64,000 bases of DNA, taken from assembly GCA_964429275.1 (NCBI GenBank), contig CAYSBJ010000002.1, forward strand, positions 282,459 to 346,458, read 5' to 3'. Shown one piece after another: positions 27,643 through 35,302 of the stretch. The translations under genes were made by a program, and so were the position numbers. This DNA is from an uncultured Pseudomonadota bacterium. GTDB lineage: Bacteria; Babelota; Babeliae; Babelales; JAUPTZ01. The notes under the pieces are model-generated. The model was not told the DNA's origin and made no database searches. It saw only the letters and a program-made list of their open reading frames with translations. The number at the start of each line of letters is the position of its first letter. The first letter of the stretch is position 1.

Positions 27643-28335
27643 ATGGAGAAACGTATAATGAAACGTAAAAAAGTGCAGTTGCCTGCGCCGGCCTACCTTT
27701 GTAGCGACGCGCTGGGGCAACAGCTGGTATATCGTCAGCATTCAATTCATGAAATTCATGAGGGCCCGCTGGGTAGCGCAACCGACTTGCAGAGCTCACC
27801 AAAAGTCCAAGCCGCGCTGTATTCAGCACAAAAAACGCTCGATGAAGCGCTTTTGAGCGCCGTTCAGAATAAATGTATCCCTCAAATGATAGCCCGCATT
27901 ATTGCGCAAGGTGCAAATACCAACGCTTTGTGTGGCGGGCTATCCCCTATCGTTGCAGCCATTCTGAACCGAGACATAGAAACGGTCACTTTTCTGCTCA
28001 CCCGTGGGGCTAACCCGGTCATACGAGATGAGTACGGCAACACCCCGCTACACGTAATCGCTACCCATTTGACCCCCAAAACATTAAAGATGGCTCATAT
28101 CCTCCTTATTGCAGGAGCACAGGTCGATGCCCAGAACGACCTTGGGCAGACCCCGCTTCACCTTCACGGCAAGGCAGGCTCTCTGTACATACAATTCGCC
28201 CATATACTCATTAAAGCCGGCGCCCGGCTTGATTTGATTGATATCAAAGGAAACGAGCCGTTTACCCGATTGCCGGAAAAGCAACGAGAAGAGTTGATGC
28301 GGTTTGCGCTTTTTGCGCTGTTTGATAGAGAATAA
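27643..28335 (+). CDS. ankyrin-repeat protein (230 aa)
   Basis: About 4 ANK units, for example LSPIVAAILNRDIETVTFLLTRGANPVIRDEYGNTPLHVIA and GQTPLHLHGKAGSLYIQFAHILIKAGARLD. Confidence 0.85.
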   Translation: MEKRIMKRKKVQLPAPAYLCSDALGQQLVYRQHSIHEIHEGPLGSATDLQSSPKVQAALYSAQKTLDEALLSAVQNKCIPQMIARIIAQGANTNALCGGLSPIVAAILNRDIETVTFLLTRGANPVIRDEYGNTPLHVIATHLTPKTLKMAHILLIAGAQVDAQNDLGQTPLHLHGKAGSLYIQFAHILIKAGARLDLIDIKGNEPFTRLPEKQREELMRFALFALFDRE

Positions 28336-30113: not shown

Positions 30114-30539
30114 ATGTCCACTCAATTGACGATATCCATAGAGCTCATTACATTTATGCAGTGGGTTTTAAAGTATAAAAGTGATGCATTTGCAGCCTTC
30201 ATCGCGCAAACAGTCGATTCAGATCTTCGCGAGAAACTCGTTGCGATTTCGCAAAACACGCAACCCACTGTTTCCTCTGACAAACTATACGAAACCCTCA
30301 GTAACTTTGTGCGCTTTATTGAGTACAACCTCGAACTTACCAATCCAGCGGACGACTCATTTATTGCTACCCGTCAACCCAAGAAAAAAACACGTACGCA
30401 TCGCCATCATGCCGCGAAATGCGCTGAACACACTACTGCACAAGTAAATGAGATTCAAAGCATTCAGTCACCAACGCAACGGATTCTCTATCAAGCGCTG
30501 TTCACGAATGAAAATAATTCAGAAAGTGGTGTGAGCTAA
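30114..30539 (+). CDS. hypothetical protein (141 aa)
   Basis: ORF with a strong Shine-Dalgarno sequence (AAGGAGGACCACC-ATG). No family recognised. Confidence 0.6.
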   Translation: MSTQLTISIELITFMQWVLKYKSDAFAAFIAQTVDSDLREKLVAISQNTQPTVSSDKLYETLSNFVRFIEYNLELTNPADDSFIATRQPKKKTRTHRHHAAKCAEHTTAQVNEIQSIQSPTQRILYQALFTNENNSESGVS

Positions 30540-31555
30540 TACGGAGTGAGGGGGTTTCCGTTCAGTACCGCAAGCTCTTTTTCTCGTCTTTGCAGCCTGT
30601 CATACGCTACAGCCTGAGCATCGCGCAACGCGCGCTCTTGAGCTCCAAGCACCGTGGCAACCCACTCTAATTTTTGCGTGAGAGCGGGATCCGTCATACA
30701 CACCAACTCTGTGTATGCACAGTCAACTTGGTTACTTTTGTTTCGTACTGCATACCCACGCACAAGAATCTCAACGGAAAGATTATATTTCTCTCGCATT
30801 AAGAGTAGTTTTCGAGCGGTAAGGTAAAGATCCTGCTGGCTTTTGGCACGAACTGTACCTTCTTTAAAAGCTCCAATGATAGTAGAAAGGAAACCATCGC
30901 AGAGTTCGCCCCGCCTGAGCGCAATCTCTATAGCCCTGCTGTTCAAAGATAAAGTATCGCAGTTTCCTCTTAAGGTACTGACGACTTGCTCTGTAGCCCA
31001 GTTATCAAAGCTAATAGTTCTTTGCTCAGCTTTTAAAGCTTCAAGGCTTTTTCCTTTTAAATGCAACTCTTGAGTAGAGGCTAATTCAAAAGCTGCGCAC
31101 GCGCTCTCACACTCTTTCTGAAGTACGTCATAGTTCCTTTCTGCGTCCCTGCATGCCATGGCCTTCCTATTATACTCATAGAGCACTTGCAACGTCTTAA
31201 TAATTAAAAAGGCAGAAAACACTACGCGCAATGCTCCTATCGTGGTCGCCTTATCTCGAAATATGCGCTTCCAAAAAGCGCATCCCTGCAGATCTTTACC
31301 AAAGAAAATCTTCCTGTAATCCCGCTTATCAGCAAGCATAGCGATCCCATTTCCCACGGCAAGCACGGAACCTATTAAGTAAAGCATTCCACCCTGTGCA
31401 TAATCAGCCCGACAAACGCTCCAGCGGTCAAGAGCCGCGTTCCGCTGTTCTCTCAAGGCATCGAGTGCCACAGCCCGCTCTTTAATGGAGACTTCGCTTA
31501 TAAGCTGAAAACTTGCGCACAAGATTGATAAACAACTTATGTAGACCCTACGCAT
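30536..31555 (-). CDS. membrane protein, family B member 3 (339 aa)
   Basis: Shares DYRKIFFGKDLQGCAFWKRIFRDKATTIGALRV plus flanking hydrophobic helices with the two upstream genes. Long helical C-terminal extension. Confidence 0.65.
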   Translation of the reverse strand: MRRVYISCLSILCASFQLISEVSIKERAVALDALREQRNAALDRWSVCRADYAQGGMLYLIGSVLAVGNGIAMLADKRDYRKIFFGKDLQGCAFWKRIFRDKATTIGALRVVFSAFLIIKTLQVLYEYNRKAMACRDAERNYDVLQKECESACAAFELASTQELHLKGKSLEALKAEQRTISFDNWATEQVVSTLRGNCDTLSLNSRAIEIALRRGELCDGFLSTIIGAFKEGTVRAKSQQDLYLTARKLLLMREKYNLSVEILVRGYAVRNKSNQVDCAYTELVCMTDPALTQKLEWVATVLGAQERALRDAQAVAYDRLQRREKELAVLNGNPLTPY

Positions 31556-31562
31556 TATTCTT

Positions 31563-32078
31563 TTATTCTGAAGCTTTTTTTCGCAACATATCCAATCGCA
31601 TACATTTTTCTTCTAATTTTGCTTCTAGCTTGCTCCTAAGATGTTTTATTTTTTCTTTATCATTAGCCCAATTCTCTTTCAATTCGCTCGGAACGTGGGG
31701 AGATTGTCTAGCTTTTCTACGCGCGTCTTCAACATTTTTCCAAGCTTTTCTCTCCGCATAGAACGCAAGGAGCGGAAATAACACAGAAGATGCCACACGA
31801 AGTGTCGCAATAACCGTTTCCTTATCATTTAACAAGCGCTTTAAAAACCCACGACCCCGCTCATCTTTGCCGAAAAAAGTCTTATTAAAATCAACATTAT
31901 CCTGAATTTTCATCTGCAAGACATTAATCACCGCCAAGAACGCTACATTAGTAGCAAGAAAGAACGCTTTCTGATGCTTATCTTCTGCAAGAGCAGCATC
32001 AAAAATAGCTTCACCCTGCATTCCACAGATGCTCACAAACAAAAAAAGTATTATTATAGATCTACTTTTCATGATCAC
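31563..32078 (-). CDS. membrane protein, family B member 2 (171 aa)
   Basis: Motif DFNKTFFGKDERGRGFLKRLLNDKETVIATLRV. 4-nt overlap with the upstream gene at 32075-32078. Confidence 0.65.
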   Translation of the reverse strand: MIMKSRSIIILFLFVSICGMQGEAIFDAALAEDKHQKAFFLATNVAFLAVINVLQMKIQDNVDFNKTFFGKDERGRGFLKRLLNDKETVIATLRVASSVLFPLLAFYAERKAWKNVEDARRKARQSPHVPSELKENWANDKEKIKHLRSKLEAKLEEKCMRLDMLRKKASE

Positions 32079-32683
32079 TCCCCCTCATACTTCTGTATTA
32101 AAGTAGCCAAGTATTGAGAATAGAATTTATCTTCATCCGCTACTTTTTTCAGCACAGATTGATACTGCTCTTCAGCTTCTTTAATAGCCGCGGCATCTGA
32201 CCAAGTCTGACGAAAAACGAAAAACCAAAGTAAAGCTGGCCCAAAAAGACGCAGTGCGGCTACGGTCGTATCTTTGTCACGGAATATGCGCTTAAAAAAA
32301 TTACGGCCATTCTCATCTGTTCCCAAAAAAATTTCTTTATAATCGATTGAATTAGCAAACATTTCCATCGCATTAAAAAGAGCCACCGTGTAAAAAACGT
32401 CCCGCAGCTGCTTGGTTTTCTTCTTAGATTTTTTACGAGCTGCATTCAACAATTCAATTTTCGCCGTATAAGGCCGCTCGAGAAGCGAGTCCTTGCGATA
32501 CTCCAAAGAATGCAATTTAACAATGTCACCCGTACGTTGCTTAACCTCTCTCTCCAAGGTCTCGCGCTCTGTTAAGGGCCCATATACTTGATTATTTTCT
32601 TTGCCGAACGGCTCTGTAACGCTCGCAGCAGAGAGCGCCCCTATCATACCAAGCATACACCACATACATAGAATATTGGCCAT
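32075..32683 (-). CDS. membrane protein, family B member 1 (202 aa)
   Basis: Motif DYKEIFLGTDENGRNFFKRIFRDKDTTVAALRL. Lies 14 nt downstream of the MFS gene. Confidence 0.65.
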   Translation of the reverse strand: MANILCMWCMLGMIGALSAASVTEPFGKENNQVYGPLTERETLEREVKQRTGDIVKLHSLEYRKDSLLERPYTAKIELLNAARKKSKKKTKQLRDVFYTVALFNAMEMFANSIDYKEIFLGTDENGRNFFKRIFRDKDTTVAALRLFGPALLWFFVFRQTWSDAAAIKEAEEQYQSVLKKVADEDKFYSQYLATLIQKYEGE

Positions 32684-33912: not shown

Positions 33913-34024
33913 ACTTTATACTTTCAACCAAAAAAAAGAGCGGCAATATATACCGCAAAAATAGCAAAAACGGTAGAAATATTTGGAATATTCAAGAAAA
34001 AAAGCATGTGACACTGAAGGTCTT

Positions 34025-35302
34025 ATGAAGTTGCTAAGGTTATTTATTATTTTTTACTGCGCTACCTGCCTCCCTCTATATGCGGCAGACACTCCTCAAA
34101 CAAAAGGATTTATCATCGCCACTGCGACAGCCAATGGAGTACATACGACATTTCTTACGCCCGCAACAGAACGAGCGCTGCCATCTCAAGATGAATGGCC
34201 CTCAGTGTGGGTATCTAGTAACCGACGTATCTGCATCCCAAGCAAATTCTTTATAACTGATACCACAACCTCAGCAGATAATAATGCGATGAAAATCGTA
34301 TTTCCTAAGATGGCCGCAGATGACGAGAACTACTCTCTGTATGAACAAGCGATGGAAGACGCAATCATCAGCCTCTTGGTGTGGTCACACGAGACAACGC
34401 TGTACTATAATAAAAAATGGATGGAGACAGCGCCGTCACAACACTACGTCCCTATCATCGAAGTTCTCCCGCTCGCAGGGCGTTTTCTGTACAAAAAAGA
34501 CGTAGTGGACGAGAGAAGCAGAATAGCTGAAAGACTCATCGCTGCATACGATAGCCACTTACCACAAGTTCTCCAGGCCGGGGACGACGGCCATTTTAGG
34601 CTCCTAGAAAAATTCATAAACCCTGAAGAACCCAACGACACCCCACGGTGCTTTTTATTACTATGCGCCGAACAGCTCAAGCAATCTCAACATGACCCAA
34701 CGCTACTGCCTCTAGCTTTACGCATGCTCTGGAATGGCGTTTGCCAGGACATTAGCGGCGCCCCTCACCTATTTATAAAATGGATATATAATCACTATTC
34801 AACACCATCTGACAGTACTGCTGAAGCCGCTGAAGAAACAAAAAATGAGACTAACGATGAACAAACACTACTCGTTCCAATTTTTGACCATGATTACTAT
34901 ATGGTGCTCTACCGAGCCCTCGAACATTGTGCCATCTCAATCCTTGACCTTCCTCGGCGAGGAATGACTACAAAACCTGATCAATCAGAGCCAACATGGA
35001 CCACAAGCTTAAGCTGTACCGCCCGGGAATTTTACAAGGAAAAAAAGTACGAGAAAGCTGCTGCGCTCTACGCCTTTATTGAAAGTTTCAGTCAAGACAA
35101 ATTTCTTTACAAGCACCTTGTTGCGTTTGCCAGTATTTTTCGCTATCAAGTCGGCAACCACGCTGAAGCTTCGCGGTGCTTTAAAGAGGCAATTAATCGC
35201 GGTTATCCATGCCATACCCCCCTCGCCCATTATCTTGCGAGACATGACATAAATATTAAGGCCGACGATGACTCTTGCTGCTCATCTTGCGCCATTTTAT
35301 GA
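34025..35302 (+). CDS. hypothetical secreted protein ending in a CaaX box (CAIL)
   Basis: The ATG at 34025 gives the signal-peptide-like MKLLRLFIIFYCATCLPLYAA (the track start at 33983 is TTG). TPR-like C-terminal part (YKEKKYEKAAALYAF...). The C-terminus ...DDDSCCSSCAIL* was read directly from codons 35264-35302. Confidence 0.65.
   Translation: MKLLRLFIIFYCATCLPLYAADTPQTKGFIIATATANGVHTTFLTPATERALPSQDEWPSVWVSSNRRICIPSKFFITDTTTSADNNAMKIVFPKMAADDENYSLYEQAMEDAIISLLVWSHETTLYYNKKWMETAPSQHYVPIIEVLPLAGRFLYKKDVVDERSRIAERLIAAYDSHLPQVLQAGDDGHFRLLEKFINPEEPNDTPRCFLLLCAEQLKQSQHDPTLLPLALRMLWNGVCQDISGAPHLFIKWIYNHYSTPSDSTAEAAEETKNETNDEQTLLVPIFDHDYYMVLYRALEHCAISILDLPRRGMTTKPDQSEPTWTTSLSCTAREFYKEKKYEKAAALYAFIESFSQDKFLYKHLVAFASIFRYQVGNHAEASRCFKEAINRGYPCHTPLAHYLARHDINIKADDDSCCSSCAIL

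Follow-up and report, generated by a model that had tools for sequence, protein, structure and literature searches.

AnkB of Legionella pneumophila (box CVLC) and the Pel/CMP proteins carry a conserved CaaX box, which is lipidated by the farnesyltransferase (FTase) or type I geranylgeranyltransferase (GGTase-I) of the host (PMC2916131, PMC13081727). These Legionella effectors depend on the CaaX cysteine to localise to the cytosolic side of host membranes (PMC2916131, PMC13081727). In Salmonella Typhimurium, SifA is geranylgeranylated by host enzymes at its CaaX cysteine and also S-acylated by them at a cysteine close by (Reinicke 2005, reviewed in PMC4951486), and GtgE of Salmonella also uses a CaaX box (PMC13423502). 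A cysteine located one to four residues upstream of the prenylated cysteine is the usual "second signal" for S-acylation (PMC4951486). In this study, we analysed a stretch of 64,000 nucleotides (the window) from a Candidatus Dependentiae (TM6) genome and focused on P0001, an orphan protein encoded at 34025..35302 on the plus strand. The tail of P0001, Cys-Cys-x-x-Cys-x-x-x, copies the lipid-attachment signal of eukaryotic Ras and Rho proteins. The best explanation is that P0001 is a predicted lineage-specific effector of a protist-dependent Dependentiae bacterium.

The C-terminal tail of P0001 and its orthologues

The genome of the window is a metagenome-assembled genome (MAG) of 1,207,998 bp in 8 contigs, 98% complete and with a GC content of 46.5%, and the window is located in contig C2 of this assembly (G000). 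The open reading frame (ORF) of P0001, including its stop codon, encodes 425 amino acids ending in ...NIKADDDSCCSSCAIL, followed by TGA. Codons 414–425 (35264..35299) read D D D S C C S S C A I L, and TGA occupies 35300..35302. An earlier note on this DNA had placed a CaaX box with upstream cysteines at 35264-35302. This interval is exact, as it covers codons 414–425 and the stop codon, and the terminal Cys-Ala-Ile-Leu was confirmed letter by letter. The same note had counted three cysteines ahead of the CaaX cysteine; P0001 has only two, Cys418 and Cys419, and three are found in both of its orthologues. The CaaX box, Cys422-Ala-Ile-Leu (35288..35299), is a candidate site for geranylgeranylation or farnesylation. 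Cys418-Cys419 (35276..35281), at positions −8 and −7 from the C-terminus, are candidate S-acylation sites by analogy with H-Ras, RhoB, and SifA.

The ATG at 34025 has a Shine-Dalgarno-like site, GAAGG, 5 nt upstream, and the orthologue P0003 begins at the equivalent Met. A longer frame is available from a TTG at 33983. Because of the GAAGG site and the start of the most distant orthologue, ATG 34025 was favoured over TTG 33983.

Only two relatives of P0001 were found in 5.8e9 clustered proteins, searched by sequence and profile, and 1.8e9 representative proteins. No further relatives were detected in 261 Dependentiae genomes by protein and profile searches or in the genome contigs of GTDB, and a search of JGI metagenome contigs gave no match. 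P0002, annotated as "MAG: Candidatus Dependentiae bacterium", shares 61% identity with P0001 and is encoded by G114, a genome of the same genus as that of the window. Its database entry is truncated at the N-terminus, and the full ORF is located at L002:7737..9011. P0003, from a JGI metagenome, shares 39% identity with P0001. The gene order is common to all three loci: an MFS transporter, the P0001-type gene, a membrane protein of 247–254 amino acids, Maf, DprA, and GyrA. Therefore, P0002 and P0003 are orthologues of P0001.

We compared the tails of P0001 (DDDSCCSSCAIL), the G114 protein (EDDSSCCACCIMS), and P0003 (EDRDTCCGCCSTQ). In the DNA alignment, the three tails match codon for codon, and the sole indel falls within the acidic linker that precedes them. 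All three syntenic orthologues, down to 39% identity, retain the cysteines at −8, −7, and −4 as counted from the C-terminus. The orthologues end in CCACCIMS (G114) and CCGCCSTQ (P0003), each with three cysteines ahead of the CaaX cysteine; position −5 is thus Cys in two of the three proteins and Ser in P0001, and positions −6 and −9 are occupied by small residues. The three residues that follow Cys −4 differ at every position (AIL, IMS, and STQ) but never in number. D, E, K, R, and P are absent from these nine aaX positions, an absence for which the proteome composition gives P ~0.03-0.07. Where overall identity is 39%, divergence of the linker and of aaX is complete, and the three cysteines and the position of the stop codon are retained. 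The earlier note had made its proposal dependent on conservation of the motif in orthologues, and Cys −4 was indeed kept in all three at a fixed distance from the C-terminus.

The boxes were compared with the known preferences of prenyltransferases. CAIL is a measured substrate tetrapeptide of both GGTase-I and FTase (PMC1175975), and it is also the box of Saccharomyces cerevisiae Cdc42 (PMC11304957). Yeast FTase is restricted mainly by D, E, K, or R at a2 and by K, P, or R at X, and Q at X is favourable (PMC10320760). Under these rules, none of CAIL, CIMS, and CSTQ has an unfavourable residue at a2 or X (PMC10320760). By analogy with Ydj1 CASQ, CSTQ (a2 = T) would probably be prenylated but uncleaved, that is, "shunted". 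The X residue varies by species (L, S, or Q); therefore, the type of lipid would not be conserved, only the act of lipidation. By their boxes, the orthologues look like farnesylation substrates, and geranylgeranylation would apply at most to the species of the window. The claim of the earlier note that X = Leu specifies geranylgeranylation agrees with the validated use of CAIL by GGTase-I, shared with FTase, and extends at most to P0001.

The PrePS motif includes a small or hydrophilic linker of roughly 11 residues ahead of the modified cysteine (PMC1175975). In P0001, the 11 residues before Cys422, IKADDDSCCSS, are small and hydrophilic with Ser at −1, and the linker before the CaaX box is coil in the AlphaFold2 (AF2) models at low confidence (predicted local distance difference test score, pLDDT, < 50). 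The acidic hydrophilic linker itself, residues 407–417 (RHDINIKADDDS; 35243..35275), is variable and holds the only indel of the tail region. The earlier note had also stated that bacteria lack protein prenyltransferases. The alpha/beta families of these enzymes (PF00432, PF01239) gave no match in G000, which fits the statement, in a search whose sensitivity is weakly controlled and cannot be verified with prokaryotic controls.

Frequency of CaaX ends and the route of export

We counted C-terminal ends genome-wide using naive ORF calling, which gave 970 ORFs in G000, and applied the same calling to two complete genomes, G007 (G007:C1, loci L027-L082) and G245 (loci L083-L142). In G000, Cys was found at −4 in 16 ORFs and at the other terminal positions in 13.3 ORFs on average. 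P0001 was the sole canonical C-a-a-X end, and shifted registers predict 3.1. Taken alone, the CaaX motif is within chance for the proteome of G000. At least three cysteines within the last 10 residues were found in 2 of the 970 ORFs. The motif of P0001 rises above chance because such a terminal cluster is rare and Cys −8, −7, and −4 were kept while their flanks vary.

Other Cys-bearing ends of G000 were considered as CaaX candidates and rejected. Two leader-bearing proteins of ~520 amino acids on the minus strand, at G000:C2:202855-204438 (ending in ...WSKLCICF) and G000:C2:195872-197416 (ending in ...FSCSLCHIF), probably carry the aromatic C-terminal signal of outer-membrane beta-barrels. The CIGK end of MnmE and the SecA tail ...CTCGSNKKYKTCCGKR were set aside as housekeeping motifs; the SecA Cys cluster CTCGSNKKYKTCCGKR presumably has a zinc-binding role.

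G007, a Dependentiae genome with 27% GC, showed a threefold excess of Cys at −4: 30 ORFs, compared with a mean of 10.0 at the other terminal positions and 16 at the next-highest position (Poisson 2.6e-7). Canonical C-a-a-X ends numbered 17 in this genome, with 2.2 expected from shifted registers, and include CILS, CLLS, CALS, CLVS, CTIS, and CISM. Leader-like N-termini were present on 22 of the 30 ORFs with Cys −4 (Fisher 0.0024). The excess was weaker in G245, with Cys at −4 in 25 ORFs (mean of the other positions, 17.2) and nine canonical ends (shifted registers, 3.3), several of the ends following basic tracts, e.g. KKRSGRCITM and HKKTKCIII. In some members of the phylum, Sec leaders are thus paired with CaaX ends in a genuine, position-specific manner; in G000, P0001 alone shows this pairing. 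Because this pairing occurs elsewhere in the phylum, host lipidation of a Sec-exported protein is plausible.

The N-terminus of P0001 (residues 1–20, 34025..34084; MKLLRLFIIFYCATCLPLYA, cut before AD) is a predicted Sec signal peptide. As read from the sequence, it has a basic n-region (K2, R5), a hydrophobic core of 14 residues, and a small residue at −1, and it was flagged as signal peptide-like by a hydrophobicity heuristic. The A-A-D at the predicted cleavage site is identical in all three orthologues, and the leader itself is conserved. The n, h, c layout suggests a Sec signal peptide, and the segment may alternatively be a signal-anchor. A lipobox was rejected, as CATC and SATC are poor lipoboxes and the Cys is missing from P0003.

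The body of P0001 gave no significant match in profile searches of Pfam, NCBIfam, or PDB, and these searches identified no F-box, ankyrin, RCC1, or Ras-type GTPase domain. Residues ~322–406 (34988..35242) form a helical TPR-like region, the most conserved part of the protein, as suggested by the alignment, by AF2, and by a TPR_2 match below threshold (residues 374–390; E=0.013, 16 bits against a cut-off of 27 bits). Two long TPR-like proteins, P0004 and P0005, also gave weak repeat matches to residues 305–389. The AF2 models were mostly helical and of low confidence, with a mean pLDDT of 41.8 for the full protein with the three-sequence alignment and 47.7 for the C-terminal 140 residues alone. 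The whole protein is rich in Cys (3.1%, compared with 1.29% in the proteome), and its body holds four more invariant cysteines.

The only known lifestyle of Dependentiae is that of an intracellular parasite or symbiont of a protist (PMC6561590). In this phylum, Chromulinavorax destructans is located in the host cytoplasm and exports proteins by Sec, and signal peptides are present on 44% of its coding sequences and 78% of its ankyrin proteins (PMC6561590). G000 encodes three secretins and GspE/PilB-type ATPases. FHIPEP (PF00771) and VirB4 (PF03135), which are markers of the type III (T3SS) and type IV (T4SS) secretion systems, gave no match in this 98%-complete genome. Therefore, any release of P0001 would proceed by Sec followed by a type II-like step, or by vesicles. 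We infer from the biology of the phylum that P0001 may reach the host cytosol.

Proposed function and rival explanations

Judging from its sequence, P0001 is, on balance and with some reserve, probably a Sec-exported effector that is prenylated and then S-acylated by the host and thereby anchored to host membranes. The N-terminal leader would route the protein through Sec. Its release beside or into the host cytoplasm would then follow through a type II-like pathway built on secretins or through outer-membrane vesicles, a step suggested because of the gene content of G000 and the biology of Chromulinavorax. Host GGTase-I (or FTase) would prenylate Cys422 of CAIL, and Rce1 and ICMT may process the end, a2 = Ile being cleavable. 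Host DHHC enzymes could S-acylate Cys418/Cys419 and so provide the second membrane signal, as in H-Ras, RhoB, and SifA. More speculatively, the helical TPR-like body might be fixed on the cytosolic face of the host membrane as a protein-binding scaffold, perhaps with participation of the co-transcribed partner protein, which has two transmembrane (TM) segments.

Several observations weigh against host lipidation of P0001. The evidence from conservation is thin, comprising three related orthologues only, and the CSTQ of the most distant one is non-canonical (a1 = S, a2 = T). There is no proteome-wide excess of CaaX ends in G000 (16 vs 13.3, P=0.27), and P0001 is a single case. G000 also has C-terminal Cys clusters that serve other roles (the SecA tail and MnmE CIGK). 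Unlike the many prenylated proteins that carry a polybasic tract, P0001 has an acidic DDD ahead of its cysteines. A Cys-rich tail exported by Sec would pass the periplasm, where oxidation is possible, and the AF2 models are too poor to establish that the tail of P0001 is exposed.

The main rival explanation is that the tail serves the bacterium itself. P0001 would then be a periplasmic or envelope protein whose CC-x-x-C, together with Asp, binds Zn, Cu, or Ni or forms intermolecular disulfides, and the likeness to a CaaX box would be coincidental. We consider this unlikely but deserving of serious weight. The Sec-type leader implies passage through the periplasm, and the protein is Cys-rich throughout, including the four invariant cysteines of the body. 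Acidic neighbours of the cysteines, as read from the sequence, suit metal binding; non-lipid C-terminal Cys clusters are represented in G000 by SecA and MnmE, and one canonical CaaX end is within chance for its proteome. However, a metal-binding or disulfide-forming tail needs no fixed spacer of three residues after the last cysteine, and the spacer is invariant in length with fully variable, uncharged residues. The tail of P0001 has no His, the Pfam, NCBIfam, and PDB searches gave no match to a metal-binding family, and a metal site would not explain the strong excess at −4 on leader-bearing proteins of G007.

It is less probable still, and in our view improbable, that the tail has no specific function and is the chance end of a fast-evolving orphan, its conservation reflecting shared ancestry of three relatives. 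The lack of enrichment of Cys −4 in G000 (16 vs ~13, with ~3 canonical patterns in shifted registers) and the small sample, three sequences of one family-level lineage, are in line with this. Moreover, yeast FTase accepts most CXXX ends, so that fitting the rules is a weak filter (PMC10320760). Chance does not readily account for three cysteines and a stop position kept at 39% identity next to a diverged linker and aaX, or for at least three cysteines in the last 10 residues, as rare as 2 in 970 ORFs. Constraint from the downstream gene does not explain the cysteines either; the ribosome-binding site of the partner overlaps just the stop codon and the last codon, so the Cys codons are unexplained by it. 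CCXXX is the pattern of some Rab C-termini, and the orthologue ends CCIMS and CCSTQ fit it, which would allow modification by host RabGGTase at a double-Cys geranylgeranylation signal. This is very improbable, as the substrates of RabGGTase are Rab proteins that REP presents to it (PMC1175975), P0001 has no GTPase domain, and its residue at −5 is Ser, not Cys.

Host lipidation of P0001 can be placed in a broader, more tentative proposal. In Dependentiae that possess neither T3SS nor T4SS, proteins with Sec leaders could reach the host cytoplasm via secretins or vesicles and be lipidated there, with P0001 and its partner forming a host-membrane tether; we regard this as possible but rather doubtful. 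The route would be new among the host-lipidated effectors described, and the tether might, for instance, keep organelles or membranes of the host in contact with the parasite. To our knowledge, the bacterial proteins with demonstrated host prenylation are all T3SS or T4SS effectors from a few Proteobacteria, and our literature search found no paper linking Dependentiae with CaaX. The question raised is how Sec-exported Dependentiae proteins would meet host prenyltransferases in bacteria lacking T3SS and T4SS. For P0001 itself, one single-copy orphan at the level of a genus, the gain is modest. In this phylum of mostly orphan proteins, a Cys at −4 combined with a leader offers a simple sequence handle for choosing candidate effectors.

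Neighbouring genes and comparison with known systems

The gene downstream of P0001 (35311..36066, plus strand) encodes a partner protein of 251 amino acids from GTG 35311, with a leader, two TM segments, and a Pro-rich acidic tail. Its start lies 8 nt past the P0001 gene, and the gap is 7–8 nt in all three loci. An ATG at 35299 overlaps the stop codon of P0001 (ATGA) and is in frame here. GTG 35311 was taken as the conserved start because this ATG is out of frame in G114. A promoter and terminator scan gave nothing above the shuffled expectation, and no terminator-like site was found between the two genes, which probably form one operon. The partner gene is present only where a P0001-type gene is present. 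We used it as a lead to diverged P0001 loci and gained nothing, as its distribution is equally narrow.

Upstream of the P0001 gene are an MFS transporter, three tandem paralogous orphans, and an ankyrin protein. The three orphans (30536..32683, minus strand) consist of 339, 171, and 202 amino acids and have hydrophobic N-termini. They share the core motif (I/T)F(F/L)G(K/T)D..G..F.KR...DK.T...LR and have no Pfam match, and the trio also stands beside the P0001-type gene in the G114 locus. The ankyrin-repeat protein of 230 amino acids (27643..28335, plus strand; Ank_2 E=6e-12), 6 kb upstream of the P0001 gene, has no obvious leader and no CaaX end; it is kept in the G114 locus, and a close copy is found in G115.

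The locus is variable, as other genes adjoin Maf in three congeners, G115, G116, and G117, and no diverged CaaX gene was found at the syntenic site in these genomes. At this Maf-adjacent site in L016 (G115:C15:33000-41000), L017, and L018, other genes replace the P0001-partner pair. In G115, these encode two large proteins with leaders or TM segments, the C-terminal parts of which are coiled-coil, rich in Ala, Lys, and Glu, and ankyrin-like. The site looks like a variable effector locus between core genes.

We compared P0001 with the described lipidated proteins. Like AnkB and the Pel proteins, P0001 is a bacterial CaaX protein, and Legionella, an intracellular bacterium adapted to amoebae, has no prenyltransferase of its own. 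The likeness to AnkB proposed in the earlier note covers the CaaX box and a host-dependent intracellular life, and it fails with regard to the delivery route: the Legionella effectors lack a Sec leader and enter the host through the Dot/Icm T4SS, whereas P0001 has a cleavable-looking Sec leader and its genome has neither VirB4 nor FHIPEP. In addition, P0001 has no sequence or domain relation to these effectors and belongs to a different phylum, and its second signal would be a Cys pair rather than a basic tract.

SifA follows the same dual-lipid logic as proposed for Cys422 and Cys418/Cys419 of P0001. SifA and GtgE differ from P0001 in being T3SS effectors of an animal pathogen, unrelated to it in sequence, and the lipidation of P0001 is a prediction.

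Among eukaryotic proteins, H-Ras, RhoB, and yeast Ras2 have a CaaX box, palmitoylatable cysteines one to four residues upstream, and a flexible hydrophilic linker; P0001 has a CaaX box, candidate S-acylation cysteines in the same layout, and a hydrophilic linker that may be flexible. The CAIL box of yeast Cdc42 is identical to that of P0001, and the cysteines at −8, −5, and −4 of the two orthologues match those of RhoB. Unlike the Ras and Rho proteins, P0001 has no GTPase domain or eukaryotic homologue, and the resemblance is confined to the last ~12 residues. Therefore, it would reflect mimicry of, or convergence with, Ras and Rho rather than descent. By analogy, P0001 is most likely similar in function to AnkB/Pel and SifA and a member of none of their families.

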